A stretch of 40,666 nt of DNA, taken from positions 1 to 40,666 of IMG/VR virus record IMGVR_UViG_2563366836_000013; one strand, 5' to 3'. How positions within the stretch are numbered: the first letter of the stretch is position 1; every line of letters begins with the position of its first letter. The stretch is from a virus (lineage: Duplodnaviria; Heunggongvirae; Uroviricota; Caudoviricetes). A model generated the notes under the pieces. That model had not been told where the DNA came from and searched no databases. It worked only from the letters and a program-made list of their open reading frames with translations. A program made the position numbers and the translations under genes. This document shows positions 1,549 through 40,189 of the stretch, piece by piece.

Positions 1549-1680
1549 GTTGAAGCCTGCTTTTTTATACTAAGTTGGCATTATAAAAAAGCATTGCTTA
1601 TCAATTTGTTGCAACGAACAGGTCACTATCAGTCAAAATAAAATCATTATTTGATTTCAATTTTGTCCCACTCCCTGCCT
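1549..1680. other. Prophage attL (B-O-P'): 15-bp core 1559-1573 plus lambda-like P' arm
   Basis: Core GCTTTTTTATACTAA followed by GTTGGCATTATAAAAAAGCATTGCTTATCAATTTGTTGCAACGAACAGGTCACTATCAGTCAAAATAAAATCATTATTTGATTTC, matching the lambda attP P' arm as recalled; preceded by host B arm ...GAAGCCTGC. Confidence 0.9.
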
Positions 1681-2717
1681 CTGTCATCACGATACTGTGA
1701 TGCCATGGTGTCCGACTTATGCCCGAGAAGATGTTGAGCAAACTTATCGCTTATCTGCTTCTCATAGAGTCTTGCAGACAAACTGCGCAACTCGTGAAAG
1801 GTAGGCGGATCCCCTTCGAAGGAAAGACCTGATGCTTTTCGTGCGCGCATAAAATACCTTGATACTGTGCCGGATGAAAGCGGTTCGCGACGAGTAGATG
1901 CAATTATGGTTTCTCCGCCAAGAATCTCTTTGCATTTATCAAGTGTTTCCTTCATTGATATTCCGAGAGCATCAACATGCAATGCTGTTGGGATGGCAAT
2001 TTTTACGCCTGTTTTGCTTTGCTCGACATAAAGATATCCATCTACGATATCAGACCACTTCATTTCGCATAAATCACCAACTCGCTGCCCGGTAACAACA
2101 GCCAGTTCCATTGCAAGTCTAAGCCAACATGGTGATGATTCTGCTGCTTGATAAATTTTCAGGTATTCGTCAGCCGTAAGTCTTGATCTCCTTACCTCTG
2201 ATTTTGCTGCGCGAGTGGCAGCGACCGGGTTTGTTGTTATATGGCCTTCAGCTATTGCCTCTCGGAATGCATCGCTCAGTGTTGATCTGATTAACTTGGC
2301 TGACGCCGCCTTGCCCTCGTCTATGTATCCATTGAGCATTGCTGCAATTTCTTTTGTGGTGATGTCTTCAAGTGGAACATCAGGTAGCCCCCTCCTTATT
2401 GCTTTAATTTTGCTCATGTAATTTATAAGTGTCTTCTGCTTGATTCCTCTGCTGGCGAGGATTTTTTCGTAGCGATCAAGCCATGAATGTAACGTAACAG
2501 AATTATCACTGTTGATTCTCGCTGTCAGAGGCTTGTGTTTGTGTCCTGAAAATAACTCAATGTTTGCCTGTATTGCTTCAGTAATTGCTATCCTCCTGTC
2601 TCTGCCTAATCCGAACTCTTTACCCGTCCTTGGGTCCCTGTAGCAGTAATATCCATTGTTTCTTATATAAAGGTTAGGGGGTAAATCCCGGCGCTCATGA
2701 CTTCGCCTTCTTCCCAT
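1647..2717 (-). CDS. int: Lambda-type tyrosine integrase Int
   Basis: 356 aa, MGRRRSHERRDLPPNLYIRNNGYYCYRDPRTGKEFGLG... essentially identical to lambda Int as recalled; adjacent to P' arm. Confidence 0.97.
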   Translation of the reverse strand: MGRRRSHERRDLPPNLYIRNNGYYCYRDPRTGKEFGLGRDRRIAITEAIQANIELFSGHKHKPLTARINSDNSVTLHSWLDRYEKILASRGIKQKTLINYMSKIKAIRRGLPDVPLEDITTKEIAAMLNGYIDEGKAASAKLIRSTLSDAFREAIAEGHITTNPVAATRAAKSEVRRSRLTADEYLKIYQAAESSPCWLRLAMELAVVTGQRVGDLCEMKWSDIVDGYLYVEQSKTGVKIAIPTALHVDALGISMKETLDKCKEILGGETIIASTRREPLSSGTVSRYFMRARKASGLSFEGDPPTFHELRSLSARLYEKQISDKFAQHLLGHKSDTMASQYRDDRGREWDKIEIK

Positions 2718-18617: not shown

Positions 18618-20347
18618 GCCGGAAATCTTACCCCAACGTAAATGCTGCAAATCAGTATGCCCGGGATGTCGTCCGCGGAAAGATTGTTGCCTGCCAGTTT
18701 GTGATTCAGGCCTGCCAGCGCCATCTTGATGACCTGATGGCGGAAAAAAGTAAGTCGTTTCGTTACCGCTTCGACAAGGACCTGGCTGAACGGGCCGCGA
18801 AATTTATTCAGCTGTTGCCGCACACCAAGGGGGAGTGGGCATTCAAACGGATGCCCATCACGCTGGAGCCGTGGCAGCTATTTGTGATCTGCTGTGCGTT
18901 TGGCTGGGTCAATAAAGGCACCCGGTTGCGCCGCTTCCGGGAGGTGTACACCGAAATCCCCCGTAAGAACGGCAAATCAGCAATCTCTGCCGGTGTTGCC
19001 CTGTATTGTTTTGCCTGTGATAACGAGTTTGGCGCGGAAGTGTATTCCGGTGCCACGACAGAGAAACAGGCGTGGGAAGTCTTTCGCCCGGCGCGACTGA
19101 TGTGTAAACGCACACCCATGCTGACGGAAGCGTTCGGGATTGAGGTTAACGCCTCAAACATGAACCGTCCGGAGGATGGCGCGCGGTTTGAACCGCTGAT
19201 CGGCAACCCAGGTGATGGTTCATCACCCCACTGTGCCGTGGTTGATGAATATCACGAGCATGCCACCGATGCGCTTTATACCACAATGCTTACCGGGATG
19301 GGGGCGCGACGTCAGCCACTGATGTGGGCCATCACCACCGCCGGGTACAACATTGAGGGGCCGTGCTACGACAAGCGGCGGGAAGTCATCGAGATGCTCA
19401 ACGGCTCGGTGCCTAACGATGAACTGTTCGGGATCATCTATACCGTTGATGAAGGTGACGACTGGACCGACCCGCAGGTGCTGGAAAAAGCCAATCCAAA
19501 TATTGGCGTGTCGGTTTATCGCGAATTTTTGTTAAGTCAGCAGCAGCGTGCGAAAAATAACGCCCGTCTGGCAAACGTCTTTAAAACAAAACACCTCAAT
19601 ATCTGGGTGTCGGCGCGTTCGGCGTATTTCAACCTGGTGAGCTGGCAGAGCTGCGAGGATAAATCACTGACTCTTGAGCAGTTCGAGGGGCAGCCGTGCA
19701 TTCTGGCCTTTGACCTGGCGCGTAAGCTGGATATGAACAGCATGGCGCGACTTTATACCCGCGAGATTGACGGTAAAACGCATTACTACAGTGTGGCCCC
19801 GCGTTTCTGGGTACCGTATGACACGGTGTACAGCGTCGAGAAAAATGAAGATCGCCGGACAGCCGAACGCTTTCAGAAATGGGTGGAAATGGGCGTTCTG
19901 ACCGTTACCGATGGTGCAGAGGTGGATTATCGCTACATCCTCGAAGAGGCCAAAGCGGCGAACAAAATCAGCCCGGTCAGTGAGTCACCCATCGACCCTT
20001 TCGGAGCGACCGGGCTGTCACATGACCTTGCTGATGAAGACCTGAATCCCGTTACTATCGTCCAGAACTTCGCCAATATGTCCGACCCGATGAAAGAGCT
20101 GGAGGCAGCGATTGAATCGGGACGCTTTCATCATGACGGCAATCCCATCATGACCTGGTGTATCGGCAATGTGGTCGGCAAAAACATGCCAGGTAACGAT
20201 GATTTAGTGAAGCCCGTCAAAGAGCAGGCGGAAAACAAAATCGATGGTGCAGTTGCGCTGATTATGGCGGTTGGCAGAGCCATGCTGTACGAGAAAGAAG
20301 ACACGCTGTCTGACCACATTGAGTCCTATGGGATCCGCTCGCTTTAA
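18614..20347 (+). CDS. Terminase large subunit
   Basis: 577 aa; ATPase and nuclease regions (VDEYHEH Walker-B-like); position between TerS and portal. Confidence 0.93.
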
Positions 20348-20358
20348 CTGAGGTAATT

Positions 20359-20541
20359 ATGATCATGCTGATTCTCGCGCCTCTGGTGGGCGTGCTGGGG
20401 GCGCTTTTGCTGGCGTATGGTGCCTGGCTGATTTATCCCCCGGCGGGGTTTGTTGTTGCCGGGGCGTTGTGTCTGTTCTGGTCGTGGCTGGTGGCGCGAT
20501 ATCTCGACCGTACACAGTCGTCTGTCGGCGGAGGTAAATAG
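20359..20541 (+). CDS. Small membrane protein (60 aa), unknown
   Basis: GAGG RBS, two hydrophobic helices, stop overlaps portal GTG start (TAGTG). Confidence 0.4.
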
Positions 20542-21782
20542 TGTTCTTTTCGGGATTATTTCAACGAAAAAGTGACGCACCGGTGACCACGCCAGCAGAG
20601 CTGGCGGATGTTATCGGGTTGTCCTACGACACCTATACCGGAAAGCAGATCAGCAGCCAGCGGGCCATGCGACTGACGGCGGTTTTTTCCTGTGTCAGGG
20701 TGCTGGCGGAGTCGGTCGGGATGTTGCCCTGCAACCTGTATCACCTGAACGGCAGTCTGAAGCAGAGAGCCGCTGGCGAACGTCTGCATAAGCTGATCTC
20801 CACGCATCCCAATGGCTATATGACGCCGCAGGAGTTCTGGGAGCTGGTGGTCACCTGTCTGTGCCTGCGGGGAAACTTTTACGCCTACAAAGTGAAAGCA
20901 TTTGGCGAAGTGGCTGAACTGCTGCCCGTCGATCCCGGCTGTGTGGTACCGAAGCTTAACAGTAGCTGGGAGCCGGTCTATCAGGTCACATTCCCGGATG
21001 GCTCCACGGATGTACTGAGCCAGGAGGATATCTGGCATGTGCGCACGCTGACGCTGGACGGACTGGTGGGGCTGAATCCCATCGCCTATGCCCGCGAGGC
21101 AATATCGCTGGCGGCAGCGACCGAAGAGCACGGGGCCAGACTGTTTAGCAATGGCGCGGTGACGTCGGGTGTGTTGCGTACAGAGCAGACGCTGTCAGAT
21201 CAGGCTTATGAGCGCCTGAAGAAAGATTTTGAGGAGCGTCACACCGGGCTTGGCAATGCTCACCGCCCGATGATCCTTGAGATGGGGCTGGACTGGAAGT
21301 CGATGGCGCTGAACGCCGAGGACAGCCAGTTCCTGGAAACCCGCAAGTTTCAGCTTGAAGAAATCTGTCGTCTGTTCCGGGTGCCGTTGCACATGGTGCA
21401 GAACACCGATCGCGCCACCTTCAACAATATCGAAGAGCTGGGGCTGGGATTTATCAACTATTCACTGGTGCCGTATCTGACCCGCATCGAACAGCGGATC
21501 AACACCGGACTGGTACGAAAAAGTAAGCAGGGCGTTTATTACGCCAAATTTAACGCCGGGGCGTTACTGCGCGGGGATATGAAGTCCCGTTTTGAAGCCT
21601 ACGCCACCGGGATCAACTGGGGAATTTACTCTCCCAATGACTGCCGCGACCTGGAAGATATGAATCCACGACCCGGTGGTGATGTCTATCTCACACCGAT
21701 GAACATGACCACGAAACCCTCCGATGGCAGTAAAGCCGGTAAGCAGAAGGATAACGCCAATGCAGACGAAACAACGTCTTGA
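20541..21782 (+). CDS. Portal protein (HK97 family)
   Basis: 413 aa, GTG start with GGAGG RBS; portal-like sequence and position after TerL. Confidence 0.9.
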   Translation: MFFSGLFQRKSDAPVTTPAELADVIGLSYDTYTGKQISSQRAMRLTAVFSCVRVLAESVGMLPCNLYHLNGSLKQRAAGERLHKLISTHPNGYMTPQEFWELVVTCLCLRGNFYAYKVKAFGEVAELLPVDPGCVVPKLNSSWEPVYQVTFPDGSTDVLSQEDIWHVRTLTLDGLVGLNPIAYAREAISLAAATEEHGARLFSNGAVTSGVLRTEQTLSDQAYERLKKDFEERHTGLGNAHRPMILEMGLDWKSMALNAEDSQFLETRKFQLEEICRLFRVPLHMVQNTDRATFNNIEELGLGFINYSLVPYLTRIEQRINTGLVRKSKQGVYYAKFNAGALLRGDMKSRFEAYATGINWGIYSPNDCRDLEDMNPRPGGDVYLTPMNMTTKPSDGSKAGKQKDNANADETTS

Positions 21783-22410
21783 TGTACCGCTGAGTCTGAA
21801 ATCTGTCAGTGACTCCGGTGAGTTTGAAGGGTATGGCTCCGTCTTTGGTGTAAAGGACAGCCACGATGATGTGGTGATGTCCGGGGCATTTGCTGCTTCC
21901 CTGCGGGCGTGGAGTGACAGAAAAGCGTTACCTGCGCTGCTCTGGCAGCACCGCATGGATGAACCCATCGGTGTTTACACCGAAATGAAGGAAGACGATG
22001 TCGGGCTTTACGTCAGGGGACGGTTGCTTATTGATGATGATCCCCTCGCAAAACGCGCACATGCACACATGAAGGCCGGTTCGTTAACCGGCCTTTCTAT
22101 TGGGTACGTCCTGAAAGACTGGGAATACGACCGGAGCAAAGAAGCCTTTCTGCTGAAAGAAATCGACCTCTGGGAAGTCAGCCTGGTGACGTTCCCGTCT
22201 AACGACGAGGCGCGGATCAGCGACGTCAAGAACGCACTGGCCCGCGGGGAAATCCCCGAACAGAAAAAAATCGAAAGAGTCCTGCGTGATGTCGGACTCT
22301 CCCGTACCCAGGCCAAAGCATTCATGGCCGGGGGCTATGGCGCACTGTCCCTGCGCGACGCTGAGGATGTGGGCTCTGCACTGAATGCACTGAAAAATCT
22401 GAACTTCTAA
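21760..22410 (+). CDS. Prohead protease (HK97 family)
   Basis: Start at internal ATG (MQTKQRL...), overlapping portal 3' end; protease-like sequence; precedes capsid gene. Confidence 0.8.
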   Translation: MQTKQRLDVPLSLKSVSDSGEFEGYGSVFGVKDSHDDVVMSGAFAASLRAWSDRKALPALLWQHRMDEPIGVYTEMKEDDVGLYVRGRLLIDDDPLAKRAHAHMKAGSLTGLSIGYVLKDWEYDRSKEAFLLKEIDLWEVSLVTFPSNDEARISDVKNALARGEIPEQKKIERVLRDVGLSRTQAKAFMAGGYGALSLRDAEDVGSALNALKNLNF

Positions 22411-22424
22411 TCAGGAGAAATACG

Positions 22425-23630
22425 ATGGCGGTTGATATTAAAGATGTCGAACAGGTCGCGCAGGAGCTGCAGCAGAAGTTTGACGACTTCAAAGCAAAGA
22501 ACGACAAGCGCGTGGATGCGATTGAGCAGGAAAAAGGCAAGCTTGCCGGGCAGGTGGAAACCCTGAACGGGAAACTCAGCGAGCTGGAAAATCTCAAAAG
22601 CGACCTTGAAAAAGAGCTGCTTGAGCTGAAACGTCCGGCAGGTGGAGCGCAAAATAAACTGGCCACCGAGCATAAAGAGGCGTTTGTGGGCTTCCTGCGT
22701 AAAGGCCGTGAAGACGGTCTGCGCGATCTGGAGCGTAAGGCATTGCAGGTGGGTACCGATGAAGACGGTGGCTACGCCGTGCCGGAAGAACTGGATCGCA
22801 ACATTCTTAACCTGCTGAAAGATGAAGTGGTGATGCGTCAGGAAGCCACGGTGATCACCGTTGGCGGTTCCGACTACAAAAAACTGGTGAATCTGGGCGG
22901 TACGGCTTCCGGATGGGTGGGGGAAACGGATACGCGATCCCAGACTGCCACCTCCAGACTGGAGCTGATTGAACCTCTCATGGGGGAAATCTACGGCAAC
23001 CCGCAGGCTACCCAGAAAATGCTGGACGATGCCTTCTTCAACGTGGAGGCCTGGATCAACAGCGAGCTGGCAACCGAATTTGCCGAACAGGAAGAAATTG
23101 CCTTTACCTCAGGCAATGGCACCAAGAAGCCGAAAGGGTTCCTGGCGTATGAATCCACTGATGAAACCGACAAGGTCCGGGCGTTCGGCAAACTTCAGCA
23201 TATTGTATCCGGCGAAGCGACCGCGGTGACCGCAGACGCCATTATCAAACTGATTTACACGCTGCGTAAGGCACACCGCACTGGCGCGAAGTTCATGATG
23301 AACAACAACAGCCTGTTTGCCATACGTCTGCTGAAAGACACCGAGGGTAACTATCTGTGGCGTCCGGGGCTGGAACTGGGGCAGCCGTCCTCTCTGGCGG
23401 GTTACGGTATCGCTGAAAACGAACAGATGCCGGATATCGCCGCTGATGCGAAAGCCATTGCATTTGGTAACTTCAAACGGGGTTACACCATCGTTGACCG
23501 TATCGGCACCCGCATTCTGCGTGACCCGTACACCAATAAACCGTTTGTCGGTTTTTATACCACCAAGCGCACCGGCGGGATGCTGGTCGATTCGCAGGCC
23601 ATCAAACTGCTGAAGATTGCAGCGGCGTAA
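22425..23630 (+). CDS. Major capsid protein (HK97 fold) with N-terminal coiled-coil delta domain
   Basis: 401 aa, AGGAG RBS; N-terminal charged coiled coil then capsid-like body. Confidence 0.9.
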   Translation: MAVDIKDVEQVAQELQQKFDDFKAKNDKRVDAIEQEKGKLAGQVETLNGKLSELENLKSDLEKELLELKRPAGGAQNKLATEHKEAFVGFLRKGREDGLRDLERKALQVGTDEDGGYAVPEELDRNILNLLKDEVVMRQEATVITVGGSDYKKLVNLGGTASGWVGETDTRSQTATSRLELIEPLMGEIYGNPQATQKMLDDAFFNVEAWINSELATEFAEQEEIAFTSGNGTKKPKGFLAYESTDETDKVRAFGKLQHIVSGEATAVTADAIIKLIYTLRKAHRTGAKFMMNNNSLFAIRLLKDTEGNYLWRPGLELGQPSSLAGYGIAENEQMPDIAADAKAIAFGNFKRGYTIVDRIGTRILRDPYTNKPFVGFYTTKRTGGMLVDSQAIKLLKIAAA

Positions 23631-23637
23631 TCACTCA

Positions 23638-23657
23638 GGGGCGCGGAACCGCGCCCC
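23638..23657 (+). other. Perfect 9-bp stem-loop after capsid gene (mRNA stabiliser or weak terminator)
   Basis: GGGGCGCGG-AA-CCGCGCCCC; no clear U-run. Confidence 0.4.
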
Positions 23658-23679
23658 CTGTTCTGACGGGTGAAGAATC

Positions 23680-23880
23680 ATGATCCTGAAACAAGATCTG
23701 AAATGGTCACCGGACGGTATGCGTGTTGAGGTCATTCGGGCCGGTGAGTATGACGACGGGGCGCTTCCTGCCCGGGTGCAGGAGATTGCACTTCAGGCCG
23801 GGTTAGCAGAGCGCGGAATCAGTGCAAAAAGCAGTAAAGCGGCAAAAGAGAAAAAAGCCACGACCAGTAAAGAGGGCTGA
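23680..23880 (+). CDS. Small hypothetical head-module protein
   Basis: 66-aa ORF between capsid and connector genes, weak RBS. Confidence 0.3.
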   Translation: MILKQDLKWSPDGMRVEVIRAGEYDDGALPARVQEIALQAGLAERGISAKSSKAAKEKKATTSKEG

Positions 23881-23882
23881 GT

Positions 23883-24206
23883 ATGCTTCTGACAATGGAA
23901 GAGATTAAAGCCCAACTCCGGCTGGATGAGGATTTCGATGCTGATGACCGCCATCTGCAACTGCTGGCCTGTGCGGCACAAAAGCGGACGGAAACGTATC
24001 TGAACCGGAAGCTCTATGCACCGGATGAAACCATTCCGGACAGCGATCCGGACGGGCTGCACCTGCCGGATGATATTCGTCTGGGGATGCTGATGCTTAT
24101 CAGCCATTTTTACGAAAACCGCTCGTCGGTTACGGAAGTGGAGAAACTCGACATGCCGCAGAGTTTTGGCTGGCTTGTCGGCCCGTACAGGTACTTTCCG
24201 CAATGA
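23883..24206 (+). CDS. Head-tail connector (gp6-like / DNA packaging) protein
   Basis: 107 aa, MEEIKAQLRLDEDFDADD... typical of gp6-like connectors; AGAGGG RBS. Confidence 0.7.
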   Translation: MLLTMEEIKAQLRLDEDFDADDRHLQLLACAAQKRTETYLNRKLYAPDETIPDSDPDGLHLPDDIRLGMLMLISHFYENRSSVTEVEKLDMPQSFGWLVGPYRYFPQ

Positions 24207-24613
24207 AAATTCGTCAGGCGCAGACCAGCGCAACCTACATTCTGCCGGACCCCGGTGAACTGAATAAACGCGTCCTGATCCGCCAGCGGGTGGATATGCC
24301 CGCGGATAACTTTGGCGTGGAGCCTCAATACCCGGTTACGTTCCGGACATGGGCGAAGGTTATCCAGACCAGTGCCACCACCTGGCAGGAAACCGCGCAG
24401 ACCGGGGACGCCATCACCCATTACATCACCATTCGTTACCGCCGGGGGATCACTGCTGATTATGAGGTGGTCTGTGATGACAGTGTGTACCGGGTGAAAC
24501 GTCAGCGTGATCTGAACGGGGCGCGGCGCTTTCTGCTGCTGGAGTGTACGGAGCTGGGCGAATGTAGGCAGAGTCACGGAGGCAGCAATGGCGACTCCCT
24601 TTTTTCACGTTGA
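24203..24613 (+). CDS. Head closure / head-tail adaptor protein
   Basis: 136 aa, ATGA-coupled, position after the gp6-like gene. Confidence 0.55.
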   Translation: MKIRQAQTSATYILPDPGELNKRVLIRQRVDMPADNFGVEPQYPVTFRTWAKVIQTSATTWQETAQTGDAITHYITIRYRRGITADYEVVCDDSVYRVKRQRDLNGARRFLLLECTELGECRQSHGGSNGDSLFSR

Positions 24614-25094
24614 TGTTCAGCAGCCCGCCGAGATGCGCTTTAACCGCGCCCGTGTCCGGAGGGCGTTTGTCACGATTGGGCAGCGTCATATGCGTGATGC
24701 CCGTCGGCTGGTGATGCGCCGTGCGCGGTCGGCACCGGGTGAAAACCCCGGTTATCAGACCGGACGCCTGGCTCGTTCGATTGGTTATATGGTGCCGAGA
24801 GCCAGTAAAAAGCGAGCCGGTTTTATGACACGCATTGCACCTAACCAGCGCAACGGGAAGGGGAACCGGATGATCTCTGGTGACTTCTATCCGGCGTTTC
24901 TGTTTTTTGGTGTCCGGGGAGGAGCAAAACGTCGTCGTAGTCATCATCGTGGTGCATCCGGTGGCAGCGGCTGGCGACTGGCTCCACGTAATAACTTCAT
25001 GGTGGAAACTCTTGAAAAGAACCGCAGCTGGACACGCTATTTTCTGGCGCGGGAATTGCGTAAATCACTGAAGCCGGAGAGACGACACAGATGA
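24588..25094 (+). CDS. HK97 gp10-like head-tail joining protein
   Basis: 168 aa basic protein in the head-completion position; family from memory. Confidence 0.5.
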   Translation: MATPFFHVDVQQPAEMRFNRARVRRAFVTIGQRHMRDARRLVMRRARSAPGENPGYQTGRLARSIGYMVPRASKKRAGFMTRIAPNQRNGKGNRMISGDFYPAFLFFGVRGGAKRRRSHHRGASGGSGWRLAPRNNFMVETLEKNRSWTRYFLARELRKSLKPERRHR

Positions 25095-25651
25095 AACTGA
25101 CGCCTGTTATTGCTGCGCTGCGTGCCCGCTGCCCGTATTTTGAAAACCGGGTGGCAGGCGCGGCACAGTTCAAAAATCTGCCGGAGGTCGGAAAGCTGAG
25201 ACTCCCGGCGGCGTATGTGGTACCGGGTGATGACTCTCCGGGAGAAAACAAAAGCCAGACCGACTACTGGCAGGAGCTGAAAGAGGGCTTCTCCGTGGTT
25301 GTCATACTGAGTAACGGGCGTGATGAGCGCGGTCAGTTTGCCTCGTATGATGTGGTGGACGATGTCCGGCAGATGCTCTTTAAGGCTCTGCTGGGCTGGA
25401 ACCCGGAAGCGTGCGGTAACCCGATTACCTATGACGGCGGCACGCTGCTGGATCTGAATCGTCATGAGCTGATTTATCAGTTCGATTTTTCGGTCATCAG
25501 CGAGCTGACCGAAGACGATACCCGCCAGCAGGATGACCTGAACAGTCTGGATGAACTGCAAACGCTGGCGATTGATGTTGATTATCTCGAGCCCGGTAAC
25601 GGGCCTGACGGCGATATCGAACATCACACCGAAATAACCCTTCCTTCCTGA
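25091..25651 (+). CDS. Mu-like tail completion / terminator protein
   Basis: 186 aa; immediately upstream of the Mu-type sheath operon. Confidence 0.5.
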   Translation: MKLTPVIAALRARCPYFENRVAGAAQFKNLPEVGKLRLPAAYVVPGDDSPGENKSQTDYWQELKEGFSVVVILSNGRDERGQFASYDVVDDVRQMLFKALLGWNPEACGNPITYDGGTLLDLNRHELIYQFDFSVISELTEDDTRQQDDLNSLDELQTLAIDVDYLEPGNGPDGDIEHHTEITLPS

Positions 25652-35356: not shown

Positions 35357-36289
35357 ATGCATCGTATAGACACGAAAACCGCGCAGAAGGATAAGTTCGG
35401 CGCGGGTAAGAACGGTTTTACCCGTGGTAACCCCCAGACCGGCACACCTGCCACCGATCTGGATGATGACTACTTTGACATGTTGCAGGAAGAACTTTGT
35501 AGCGTGGTGGAGGCCTCCGGTGCCAGCCTGGAGAAGGAGCGGCACGACCAGTTGCTTACCGCGCTTCGTGCGCTGCTGTTAAGCCGCAAGAATCCGTTTG
35601 GTGATATCAAATCGGATGGCACGGTGAAAACGGCTCTCGAAAACCTTGGTTTGGGAGATGGCTCGGGGCGTTACAGCAAAACTGTCGTTTTTTCATCGTC
35701 GGGTTCATATACGTGGCCAGCTGACGTAAAACGAATTGACGTTATTCTGACTGCGGGGGGCGGCGGTGGCGGTGGATGTAACGCGGAGAACGCAAATCAG
35801 ACATTTTCAGGGGCTGGCGGAGGAGCCGGAGGTACTGTTTTTGCCACTATTTATGCGACAGACAACGATGCCGGGCCAGGAACCTATACAGTGACAATTG
35901 GCAGCGGTGGTAGTGGTGCCAATGGGGCAGGGTCTGGAAATAATGGCGGTAATAGTTCGTTCATGACATTAACTGCGCTCGGCGGCCAGGGTGGGCAATG
36001 GGGCGGCGCTACAAATACCGCTGGCGGGCGCGGTGGCTCAGGCTCTGGCGGTTATAAAACTGAACAAGGCGGAGACGGTTCAGACGGACAGGCGGGCCAG
36101 GCGCTATTAGTAGGCAATGGGGCATCGAGCTATTGGGGTGGCGGCGGCCGCGCTGGGCAACTGAGCGGTAATCCTGGAGTTTGCTCTGGCTCCGGCGGCG
36201 GGGGTGCATACGATAATAGCTATTCACACACGTCAGGACGTGGCGGGCACGGAGCTAATGGCGTGCTGGTAATTCGGGAGTACATGTAA
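35357..36289 (+). CDS. Tail fiber protein (conserved N-terminal anchor plus Gly-rich distal domain)
   Basis: 310 aa; N-terminus [22 protein letters not shown] resembles the shared side-tail-fiber N-domain; C-terminal half is Gly-rich low complexity. Confidence 0.75.
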
Positions 36290-36694
36290 ATGAATGATGT
36301 CTATGCAGTTGTTGATAATAACGTTGTTATTAATGTCATTATCTGGGACGGAATTTCTGAATGGAAACCAGAGGCTGGTAATTTAGTTCCGTTAAACGGC
36401 GATGCTGGCATCGGTTGGTCATATTCAGACGGAGTATTTACCGCGCCACCTCCCCCAGAACGCTCTCACAACGCGTTAGTTGCGGAGGCTGAGCTGCAGA
36501 AATCAGCACTACTGACCGTAGCAAATAACGCAATAGCACCGCTGCAGGATGCCGTTGATTTGGAAATGGCGACAGACGATGAACAGACGTTACTGCTGGC
36601 GTGGAAAAAATACAGGGTACTGCTGAACCGTGTTGATACCTCAGCGGCACCCGAAATAGAGTGGCCTACGCAACCGGGGGAGCGGGCCAGTTGA
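36290..36694 (+). CDS. Tail fiber assembly protein (Tfa)
   Basis: 134 aa, [21 protein letters not shown] ... APEIEWPT typical Tfa; TAAATG coupling to fiber gene. Confidence 0.8.
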
Positions 36695-36815
36695 TATCAG
36701 GCGCAGCGTCAGCATCAACTGCTGTCACTGCGTCGATGTAGTCGAGTACCGCATTCAGCCGCGTTTTTTCATCATCAGTCAGTTTGCGGCCTGCACTTCT
36801 CCGTTGGCATCTTTG
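36666..36815 (-). pseudogene. Remnant of an alternative tail fiber assembly gene (tfa') in inverted orientation
   Basis: Minus frame reads ...[39 protein letters not shown], a Tfa C-terminus, with no start and an in-frame stop at 36816-36818; its 3' end overlaps the 3' end of the intact tfa. Confidence 0.5.
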
Positions 36816-36992
36816 TTATATGGTACAACTGCGCAGAGGCCTGTCTCTTCAATTGTGCCAGTTGAATACTACGATACAACGCTCGGCCTTCCTGTTTGGT
36901 GGAACATAACCACATCCACATGGAAAAGAGCTGATGGTGCAGATGTATAATTCTGGTGCCGCGCATGCGGCACCAATAAAAAACATATTAAA

Positions 36993-38468
36993 CTAAAGTG
37001 AATCTATTCCATTTTTCCAAATAAGAACTTTTTTGTCTTGTATTTTATGAGTGCTATCAGGCTGCCCAAACTGTTTTATGGCCTTTTCCTCTTGCTCTAC
37101 ATCATCAGCAATTAAAAAATTAGCTCCTTTTTGGTACCATTCTTTTTTTGATAACCAATTATATGGTGTGAATCTATCACCATACGACTCAAATGGAGCT
37201 ACGTTGATATCACTAAATCCAGCAACAGATGATGCAAACCAAAATGATGCATAACCTCTTTGTAGTTTATTTTTTATTAAGAAATCTCTTAATTCTATTG
37301 TAATATCATTTTTATTAACAATGTTTTTTGTTGTTGCCATCGTTGGCAACGATAACGCAATAACGATTAATGATATTAGTAAATTTGTCTTCACTGGTAA
37401 GGAGAAAGAATTTCTAGCAATCACAATTGACATGAAAATAAACGTTGGGACTATGTATCTAATTGAGAAAAGATTTGTTGGCCTGTCACTTGAAACATAG
37501 GCAATCAACATGACTAATGATGATACAATAAGAACCTGGTCAATAAAATCAATTTCTTTAAATTTAAGAATGTTTTTATAAGATAAAAATAAGAATACAA
37601 AAATGAAAAACACCTTTATCATGGTGAATAATGAGTTAAAGCTACCTATCTCCATTCCAAACGCGTACCCACCAAAAAATTTGAATACGCCCATGATAAC
37701 AAGAGATATGTTGCTTGTTATTTGTTGAAACTCTACTATGTGAGGTTTGGTTATGCCTGGCAGGTTAAATCCACCAAGCTTAATGAATATAAATGATATG
37801 AGCTCAGCAATAAATATAGATGATATAGTGAAAACCAACAATAACAAATCATTAGTATTCAACGAATCTCTTTTCATTAGAGAAGCATACATTCTATATA
37901 TGCAAACAAAAACTATAGGTATTATAAAGGCATATTTAGATATATCATCACTAAAAACAAGCAACGATAACATAAATACATATGGAAAAAGTAATTTTAA
38001 ATCATTTTTCTTTCTGTATCTATCTATTATTAGTATGATCGCCAGCATGTAAATGTACGCACCAATATGTATACATGCTATAAGCATTATACTTGATGAG
38101 AAAACCGTTGGAATTCCAAATACAGAAAGAACAGGCCATAACGATGCCCTGCTTTTAGTATGAGAGATATATAGCGATAGTGTTACTAACATAGACATGA
38201 AAATTCCAGGCACAATATAGTACAGATTTTCATTAAATCCTATTATTTTTATCGCTATAGCATATGGTATTATTTCTGTGAAATAGAATGATACAGTTGA
38301 TAAATCCCACCCACTGAGAAAAATATTTCCTTCAGTAATATCCCTTGCCTCTCTGAATGAAGACATGACATCTGAGTTTGGAATTATGTTTTTAGCAATC
38401 ATTGAGTAAATTATTGATAATACAATAAATGTTGCCAGCCAATATAAAAGCTCAAGCTTCTTGCTCAT
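36993..38468 (-). CDS. GtrC-type serotype-specific O-antigen glucosyltransferase (polytopic membrane protein)
   Basis: 491 aa, very AT-rich, many TM helices, immediately downstream of gtrA-gtrB (ATGA-coupled). Confidence 0.8.
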
Positions 38469-39382
38469 TTTTTACCCTTAAGTACATACTTTGGACGCTG
38501 CTTAACTTCAATGTAAATTCTACCAATATACTCACCGAGCACTCCAATCCCAATTAACTGGATGCCGCCAAGAAATAATATTGATACAAGAATTGAAGGG
38601 TATCCAGGTACATTATTACCAAAAATTAATTTATCAATTATCATCCATGAACCGTATGTAAATGATATACATGCAATAAATAACCCAATATAGGTCCACA
38701 TGCGAAGCGGGAATGTTGAGAAGCTAGTGATCCCTTCCAGCGCCAAGTTCCATAGCTTCCATCCATTGAACTTTGTGCTTCCTGCAACGCGTTCTGCTCG
38801 CGCATATTCTACGACATCGGTTCGACCACCAACCCAGCTCAGCACACCCTTCATAAACAGGTTTCGTTCTGGCATGAGCTTAATGTTTTCTACTACTTCG
38901 CGAGACATGAGCCGGAAGTCGCCAACATTCTCTTCTATCTGAGGGTTGCTGATTTTGTTATGAAGTTTATAGAACCACTCAGCAGATTTACGCTTCAGCC
39001 TGCTGTCAGTGGAGCGGTCAGAGCGTTTAGCCAGAACCATATCTGCACCGGCCTGCCATTTCTCTATCAAGTGAGGAATAACTTCGATAGGGTCTTGCAG
39101 ATCAACGTCAATCGGGATAATTGCCTCCCCGGTAGCATGGTCCAGACCTGCGAACAGGGCGGGTTCTTTGCCGAAGTTACGTGTGAACGACAGCGAAACA
39201 ACAAGCGGGTCGGCAACAGCAAGCTCGTTGATAATTGATTCTGTAGCGTCTTTGCTGCCATCGTTTATGAAGACTATCTCGACTTCATGCTGCTGAAGCC
39301 CTTCAAATTCGCGCACAGTTTTATAAAAAATAGGTATCGTGGCCTCTTCGTTAAAGACCGGAACGACTAAAGAAATTTTCAT
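38465..39382 (-). CDS. gtrB: GtrB bactoprenol glucosyltransferase (GT2 family)
   Basis: 305 aa, [13 protein letters not shown]...FINDGSKD...DVDLQDP GT2 motifs and C-terminal TM helices. Confidence 0.92.
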
Positions 39383-39741
39383 TTCGCATCCCTAAAGACA
39401 ATGAACTTTGAATAGACGAAACCGCACACCAGGCTGATGGCGGAGAAGGTGACAAGAGTTATCATCGGGGGAAGTGCGCATCTATCAGCAGCCCATCCAA
39501 CAGTAGCACTGAGTGTTCCCATGAACCCGACATATAACATGTAGCGCATCGTTGTAGTTGATGCTTTGAATGTGAATTTTGCATTCGCGAAGAAGCTAAA
39601 ACTCACAGCCACAACGAAACCTGCGAAGTTTGCCAGAGCCTGATTGGTATGCGCGGCATAGATACATACACCAAAAACCACCCAGTGTATAAGTGTGTTC
39701 AGCACACCAATCGAGGTGTACCTTGCAAATATATTTAACAT
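39379..39741 (-). CDS. gtrA: GtrA flippase (bactoprenol-linked glucose translocase)
   Basis: 120 aa, four TM helices, GtrA-like; first gene of operon. Confidence 0.9.
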
Positions 39742-39895
39742 TTATTTAATCAATGAGTTCTGAAAGGTATGAAGTCTATCATCCAAGTCTCAATCGATCG
39801 ATACTTGCGGTAGTTGATGAGGAAAACTCTGGTACACAAAGCTTTGCACTGGACTGCAAGGTGTTGTGCTTCTCTGGAGTGCGATATGTTTGATG

Positions 39896-39939
39896 ACAAA
39901 AAATTAGCGCAAGAGGACAAAAAATCACCTTGCGCTAAT
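39896..39939 (-). terminator. Minus-strand rho-independent terminator upstream of the gtr promoter region
   Basis: 10-bp perfect inverted repeat TTAGCGCAAG / CTTGCGCTAA; on the minus strand the hairpin is followed by TTTTTTGT. Confidence 0.45.
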
Positions 39940-40110
39940 GCTCTGTCTCAGGTCACTAATACCATCTAAGTAGTTGATTCATAGTGACTGGATATGTTGT
40001 GTTTTGTAGTATCATGCAGTCTATTTTTTAGACTAAATGTATTTTAACGCATTGATATTATTGGCTTTTACTGTTTTGCGTTCAGCTTTTTTATACTAAC
40101 TTGAGCGAAA
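39925..40110. other. Prophage attR (P-O-B'): lambda-like P arm, 15-bp core 40085-40099, host B' arm
   Basis: ...GGTCACTAATACCATCTAAGTAGTTGATTCATAGTGACTG... P-arm-like sequence, core GCTTTTTTATACTAA, then CTTGAGCGAAACGGGAAGG (host B' arm as recalled). Confidence 0.88.
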
Positions 40111-40189
40111 CGGGAAGGTAAAAAGACAAAAAGTTGTTTTTAATACCTTTAAGTGATACCAGATGGCATAGCGCCATCTGGCAGAGTGA

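Follow-up and report, generated by a model that had tools for sequence, protein, structure and literature searches.

The short stretch of opposite-strand coding sequence behind the tail-fibre assembly gene (tfa) of this prophage is very probably a non-functional scar of an e14/Pin-type invertible fibre switch, cut when a second, convergent assembly gene (tfa') was joined to the end of a P22-type tailspike gene. The window, meaning the whole stretch of DNA that was analysed (40,666 nucleotides; IMG/VR record IMGVR_UViG_2563366836_000013), is a complete prophage in the lambda attachment site. From its sequence, identification of the tfa' stub as the relic of a Pin-type switch is well supported, and the switch was most probably cut off by the joining of a P22-like right-end module to tfa'. 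The locus is an unusually clear base-level record of a host-range switch traded for a P22-like O-antigen-modification and att module, in a scar that later spread with different cargos across several phage types. As a case study of mosaicism it is useful, but the mechanism is not new, and the feature itself is a decayed switch of a well-known kind.

The prophage and its right arm

The contractile tail and baseplate of the prophage are of the Mu/SfV type, an annotation taken from the prophage of strain SCU-105, which is 99.99% identical to window positions 2218-40666. The lambda-type integrase of the window (1647-2717, 356 amino acids) is intact on direct alignment; in the SCU-105 prophage (L012, 37950-40356), otherwise 99.99% identical to the window, the integrase is split by an IS3 element. 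The right arm reads, in order, fibre gene and tfa on the plus strand, some 300 bp without a listed gene, and gtrC, gtrB and gtrA on the minus strand (Table 1). The names given to the gtr genes by PGAP are GtrA family, GT2 (yfdH) and hypothetical; the GtrA and GtrB proteins are 100% and 95% identical, respectively, in amino acid sequence to those of a P22-like prophage (L066).

Table 1. Features of the prophage ends and right arm (window positions).
Feature	Position	Strand	Remarks
attL core, GCTTTTTTATACTAA	~1559-1573		lambda P' arm after it
Tail-fibre gene	35357-36289	+	ORF; intact, 310 aa
Din-family (pix/gix-type) crossover site, CTCTCGAAAACCTTGGTTTGGGAGAT	35634-35659		constant/variable junction of the fibre gene
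tfa, tail-fibre assembly gene	36290-36694	+	ORF; intact, 134 aa; Pfam Caudo_TAP, E=1e-32
Overlap of convergent tfa and tfa' 3' ends	36666-36694		29 bp
tfa' relic	36666-36803	-	last 45 codons and stop of a TfaE-type assembly gene; 5'-truncated pseudogene, no start codon
Illegitimate joint	36798-36821		5'-truncated tfa' and 5'-truncated tailspike fragment, head to head
P22-type tailspike relic	36822-36950 (about)	+	last ~43 codons and stop; GTTAQRP...YYDTTLGLPVWW...WKRADGADV*
GC-rich hairpin, GGTGCCGC-GCAT-GCGGCACC	36955-36974		between the tailspike relic and the gtrC stop; z = -2.8
gtrCBA	36993-39741	-	ORFs; O-antigen glucosylation cargo; gtrC 36993-38468, gtrB 38465-39382, gtrA 39379-39741
attR core, GCTTTTTTATACTAA (lambda att)	40086-40100		right prophage end, adjoins ybhB

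A second assembly gene in remnant

The preliminary description had placed the C-terminus of a further Tfa protein on the strand opposite tfa, and both the profile and the pairwise comparisons bear this out. The stub matches positions 94-130 of the 131 in the Pfam profile PF02413 (Caudo_TAP) with 43 bits and E=6.1e-11, the curated cut-off being 22.1 bits, and tblastn aligns 36803-36669 with residues 156-200 of e14 TfaE at 67% identity. With the C-terminus of the window-type plus-strand Tfa its identity is only about 40%, so that the stub represents a distinct, TfaE-type end and not a local duplication of the phage's own tfa. The overlap of about 29 bp that had been described is likewise correct, as tfa ends at 36694 and the complement of the tfa' stop, from the minus-strand translation, lies at 36666-36668. 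The bulk of tfa' is outside this overlap, and the stub is therefore no antisense artefact. The whole interval 36666-36992 had been assigned to the inverted tfa' fragment; this holds as far as 36803, and 36804-36992 proves to consist of plus-strand tailspike relic and hairpin.

What is left of tfa' does not amount to a functional PF02413 assembly gene: the complete open reading frame, the start codon and the N-terminal part of the domain are absent, the frame has stops upstream, and it offers no start codon that would yield 30 or more amino acids. Its status as a pseudogene is already known from the RefSeq annotation of near-identical strains, in which the equivalent of 36666-36794 is called by PGAP a "tail fiber assembly protein, incomplete, missing N-terminus". 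A megablast search of the stub region (36250-37050) against phage records returned no match, SfIV, pro483 and other tfa ends being reached only by distant blastn, and tblastn of the 46-residue stub against all phage records gave nothing at E<=1e-3, the query being too short for that database.

A separate observation concerns the intact tfa gene, in whose conserved 3' part falls a sub-threshold match to the Rfam family IS009 (window 36457-36645, plus strand; 48.8 bits against a gathering score of 117, E=5e-10). That family may have been built on tfa gene ends and may not be a true sRNA.

One crossover site and no invertase

The fibre gene combines an e14 StfP-type constant N-terminus, extending to about 35660, with an in-frame, glycine-rich variable C-terminal domain (Pfam Gly_rich_2 over residues 114-307). 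Its N-terminus is 95% identical in amino acid sequence to residues 1-105 of SfIV gp20, and in nucleotide sequence ymfQ and the first 100 or so codons of stfP are 96% identical between the window and e14, identity stopping at 35661. The preliminary description had recommended a search for residual crossover sites, and one site, CTCTCGAAAACCTTGGTTTGGGAGAT, lies exactly where this change occurs. It is the sole match to the Din-family consensus in 40.7 kb, with 0 expected by chance, and is identical to e14 pixL at 25 of 26 positions and to the published e14 inverted repeat at 15 of 16. Homology to e14, to SfIV and to the viral locus L036 (see below) breaks at this site.

In near-identical strains PGAP divides the 310-residue reading frame into a "StfP pseudogene, missing C-terminus" and a "glycine-rich domain-containing protein", the latter beginning at a TTG inside the crossover site. 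The split is apparently an artefact of annotating a gene that is chimeric but intact.

The remaining parts of the switch were not found. With tblastn, homologues of PinE, Gin, StfE and Mu S' were absent from the window; neither an invertase nor a StfE homologue is annotated in the SCU-105 prophage, where the lambda-type integrase is the sole annotated recombinase; neither an invertase nor an alternative fibre end occurred among about 30 related loci; and neither the consensus search of the 40.7 kb nor an inverted-repeat search revealed a second crossover site. The locus thus lacks the adjacent serine invertase, the two inverted sites and the Sv' behind tfa' of a functional Din-family (Gin/Cin/Pin/Hin) segment, and behind the tfa' stub the plus-strand tailspike relic stands in place of an alternative fibre end. 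This agrees with the earlier view that the alternative fibre and the Gin/Pin-type invertase are missing. A segment with a single site and no invertase should be unable to invert, which would leave one fibre type only; as had been suggested, the fibre is predicted to be fixed in one form, and no inversion is expected.

The combination that is present, a pix site at the fibre junction, a convergent and overlapping TfaE-type tfa, and the e14 tail and baseplate module (in which PGAP uses the gene names YmfQ and StfP), is that of a decayed e14-type P region. A scan for the TfaE-type C-terminal motif, with one genome taken per species, gave nine loci; most hold a full-length gene, five have a PinE homologue within an 8-kb stretch, and in four of those five a StfE-like fibre end lies beside tfa'.

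The joint with a P22-type tailspike gene

The plus strand beyond the stub encodes GTTAQRPVSSIVPVEYYDTTLGLPVWWNITTSTWKRADGADV*, a peptide that has no PGAP annotation. With tblastn its motif falls at the very C-terminal end of tailspike and fibre proteins, CBA120 TSP3 among them, and it is 60% identical in amino acid sequence to the tailspike C-terminus of L066. The P22-like prophages L063-L066 encode a 587-residue tailspike with the P22 head-binding domain and β-helix (Head_binding, Beta_helix), and the L066-type gene is followed directly by convergent gtrC, gtrB and gtrA, then by attR and ybhB. Among myovirus prophages that bear the scar, those of the L005/L018 type are 98% identical to L066 at the nucleotide level from 84 nucleotides before the tailspike stop, through gtr, to ybhB. 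These comparisons identify 36822-36950 as the 3' end of a P22-type tailspike gene; with about 43 codons left, and the head-binding domain and β-helix body gone, it is not a functional one.

Homology to TfaE stops at about 36803, and homology to the tailspike begins at G7 of the plus-frame peptide, at about 36822. The joint between the two is nearly invariant, with two variable positions across the aligned carriers. No full-length relative above 70% amino acid identity was found for the tfa' stub, nor above 60% for the window's own tailspike stub, and word-indexed protein searches with both stubs retrieved only further copies of the same short fragments and no donor gene. The donors are accordingly assigned by position and family.

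It is most improbable that the stub has been kept for a function of its own, be it as a terminator or insulator between the late-fibre and gtr transcripts, as an antisense regulator of tfa, or as the source of a small peptide. Its conservation (98-100% in all carriers), its position between convergent operons and the stable hairpin at 36955-36974 are the features that might suggest one. The flanks, however, are conserved equally, which indicates recent spread over selection; the reading frame, with its upstream stops, cannot be entered at a start codon; and SfV has no stub at all. A terminator and promoter scan and an Rfam search of 36400-37200 produced nothing relevant, neither a predicted terminator nor a pertinent Rfam family. 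In neither direction does the hairpin make a canonical terminator, its T-run lying on the wrong side, and the neighbouring tailspike stub carries a 4-bp frameshift deletion in L005. A scar without function is the reading retained here.

Distribution and movement of the scar

The tfa' and tailspike stubs are always found as a pair. In E. coli 042 (NC_017626.1) the region is present at 98-99% identity. They occur together in 69 of 5426 complete E. coli genomes and in all 23 of the viral contigs retrieved by exact 20-mers, and in none of the 69 E. coli occurrences is the tailspike stub present without the tfa' stub. The cargo past 36883-36950 varies: a gtrC of 491 residues in the window, a gtrC of 471 or of 485 residues elsewhere, or an acyltransferase gene. 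The acyltransferase version adjoins intS at the tRNA-Arg gene beside yfdC. The scar is found at two att sites.

These observations bear on the proposal that insertion of the present gtr cluster into the switch deleted it, leaving gtrC abutting tfa'. It has in its favour that the first intact genes to follow are gtrCBA, on the opposite strand, and that SfIV and SfV also have gtr genes at this position. The preliminary description had gtrC follow the stub directly, which is not the case, since about 145 bp of tailspike 3' end and hairpin (36822-36974) intervene; moreover, three different gtrC genes and an acyltransferase gene are found behind the same joint, in which the partner of tfa' is a tailspike gene rather than gtr. 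The identical joint before such different cargos means that the truncation is older than the present gtrC. Taken literally, deletion by gtr insertion is accordingly improbable: the part that fails is the role of this particular cluster, as the joint stands before four cargos and at two att sites, and the part that stands is that a P22-like right-end module, with gtr in it, was most probably joined to tfa'.

A different question is where the joining took place. In 67 of the 69 E. coli genomes the stub is contiguous with a SfV/e14-type fibre gene that keeps the pixL site, but the scar and what follows it have also moved. Window 36533-40147 corresponds, at 98.5% identity, to positions 4433-8047 of L010, a P2-like prophage of E. 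coli ET650, where the block lies between tfa and the sheath gene; window 36554-39861 is found in the lambdoid prophage L011, after a stf/tfa remnant. The L010 block carries the lambda att core together with a diverged copy, about 47 bp long, of the E. coli ybhB-side flank, and its probable source is an att-lambda prophage integrated in another enterobacterium.

Since P2-like and lambdoid prophages contain the block as well, the truncation may have taken place in a different phage, from which the scar would have been imported together with the tfa 3' end. Under this alternative the stub would have been made elsewhere and have arrived as a hitch-hiker in a mobile block (tfa 3' end, tfa' stub, tailspike stub, gtr and att) by recombination in the conserved tfa 3' end, and the window's own lineage would never have lost a switch. 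Both blocks have their left boundary within the conserved tfa 3' end, as this requires, and the att core and diverged flank in L010 attest to the mobility of the block. Yet the scar goes with one and the same e14-type fibre gene in 67 of 69 carriers, which makes importation less likely; the nearest tail-module relatives, e14 and SfIV, have tfa' in the same place with the same 29-bp overlap; and the att core and flank of L010 point to export from an att-lambda prophage like that of the window rather than to import. Importation is on balance an unlikely explanation, and truncation within the SfV/e14-type lineage itself is preferred.

Other rearrangements involve the same segment. In L036 (5277-6317; IMGVR_UViG_2565956624_000022) the same glycine-rich fibre end, together with tfa, the scar and gtr, follows a fibre N-terminus and baseplate of a wholly unrelated type. 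The fusion point is at the LGLG position of the crossover site, from which it follows that the site also serves as a module boundary between phage families. In L024 (9120-10600; IMGVR_UViG_2778261086_000003) a fragment of the terminase large subunit is fused directly to the fibre gene, at a point a little upstream of the crossover site. This element is a deletion derivative that has lost all head and tail genes and has kept the fibre end, tfa, the scar and the acyltransferase gene.

It is quite conceivable, if still a tentative idea, that the three-part scar of tfa 3' end, tfa' stub and tailspike stub acts as a portable homology adaptor for O-antigen-modifying cargo and the att module. If so, cargo would be exchanged by homologous recombination between prophages of the myovirus, podovirus and siphovirus types, and dead fragments of receptor-binding genes would steer the acquisition of genes that modify the host surface.

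A proposed history

The ancestor would have been a SfV/e14-type myovirus prophage with a Pin-type invertible segment laid out as in e14: a constant fibre N-terminus, pixL, a variable fibre end and tfa, facing tfa' and the alternative fibre end, followed by pixR and pin. A single illegitimate recombination event would then have broken tfa' near codon 156 of its 200 and fused it to a P22-type tailspike gene, some 45-50 codons short of the end of that gene. By this event the switch would have lost its invertase, pixR, the alternative fibre end and the 5' three-quarters of tfa', and in exchange the prophage would have gained a P22-like right-end module, comprising the tailspike 3' end, gtrCBA and a lambda-type att. 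What would have been left is the arrangement seen today, with one site in an intact fibre gene, an intact tfa, a 45-codon tfa' stub and a tailspike stub of about 43 codons.

From then on the composite scar would have provided flanking homology, allowing recombination inside the tailspike stub to replace one cargo with another and the whole block that begins in the conserved tfa 3' end to be copied into P2-like and lambdoid prophages. We infer the order and nature of these recombination events, together with the stub's lack of function, from comparison of the loci.

For annotation, the stub can be recorded as the pseudogene relic of an e14-type switch, 36822-36950 as a tailspike pseudogene, and the 310-residue fibre reading frame as intact.

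Comparison with known systems

The P region of e14, in E. coli K-12, is the closest intact counterpart. Its genes are in the order ymfQ, stfP (+), tfaP (+), tfaE (-), stfE (-) and pinE (+), and inversion at its inverted repeat has been demonstrated experimentally (PMC12529663). The tfaP and tfaE genes overlap by 29 bp (L003, 5518-5546), equal to the overlap of tfa and tfa' in the window. The earlier reading of the locus as the relic of a Pin/Gin/Cin-type invertible fibre segment is therefore upheld, with the e14 layout matched down to this overlap. The variable fibre end of the window is a glycine-rich domain and differs from that of e14; identity resumes after the variable part, at 69% across the tfa and tfa' ends. 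Whereas e14 keeps full-length tfaE, stfE, pixR and pinE, the window keeps 45 codons of tfa'.

The G segment of Mu (S-U / U'-S', gin) has the same basic design, namely a constant fibre N-terminus, an in-gene site, two convergent sets of fibre end and assembly gene, and a serine invertase. The C segment of P1 (cin) shares this design. The site core AAACCNNGGTTT is common to the window and Mu gix, and Mu U is 42% identical to the intact tfa product of the window over the aligned part. Unlike Mu, the window lacks a Gin homologue, a second site and an equivalent of S'v, and its tfa and tfa' overlap, whereas the U and U' genes of Mu have no overlap. Of the alignments that had been proposed as a check, the one with e14 supports the kinship; Mu U' has no detectable match to the tfa' stub. 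A tblastn comparison with lambda (19000-25500) disclosed no inverted tfa relic downstream of tfa.

The other putative parent of the locus has its counterpart in the right end of P22-like prophages, where the tailspike gene converges on gtrCBA, followed by att. The plus-strand stub of the window is as far from a convergent gtrC as the tailspike gene is in those prophages, which also share the att-lambda/ybhB site. Unlike in the P22-like prophages, the tailspike of the window consists of about 43 codons and is attached to a myovirus fibre module.

SfIV and SfV share with the window the Mu-type baseplate, a StfP-type fibre N-terminus (95-96%) and a gtr cluster after the fibre genes; they integrate at other sites than the window prophage and with other integrases. 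SfIV has a convergent, N-terminally truncated tfa' (gp22, 174 amino acids, 92% identical to TfaE) and no invertase, and its gp21 and gp22 genes overlap by the same 29 bp (L004, 4565-4593) as tfa and tfa' of the window. In SfIV, tfa' is cut by an IS element before gtrIV, whereas in the window it is joined to the tailspike stub; SfV has no tfa', and only a terminator lies between tfa and gtrV. The tail lineage thereby presents an erosion series, from the intact switch of e14 through the 174-residue tfa' of SfIV and the 45 codons of the window to SfV, in which nothing of tfa' is left.
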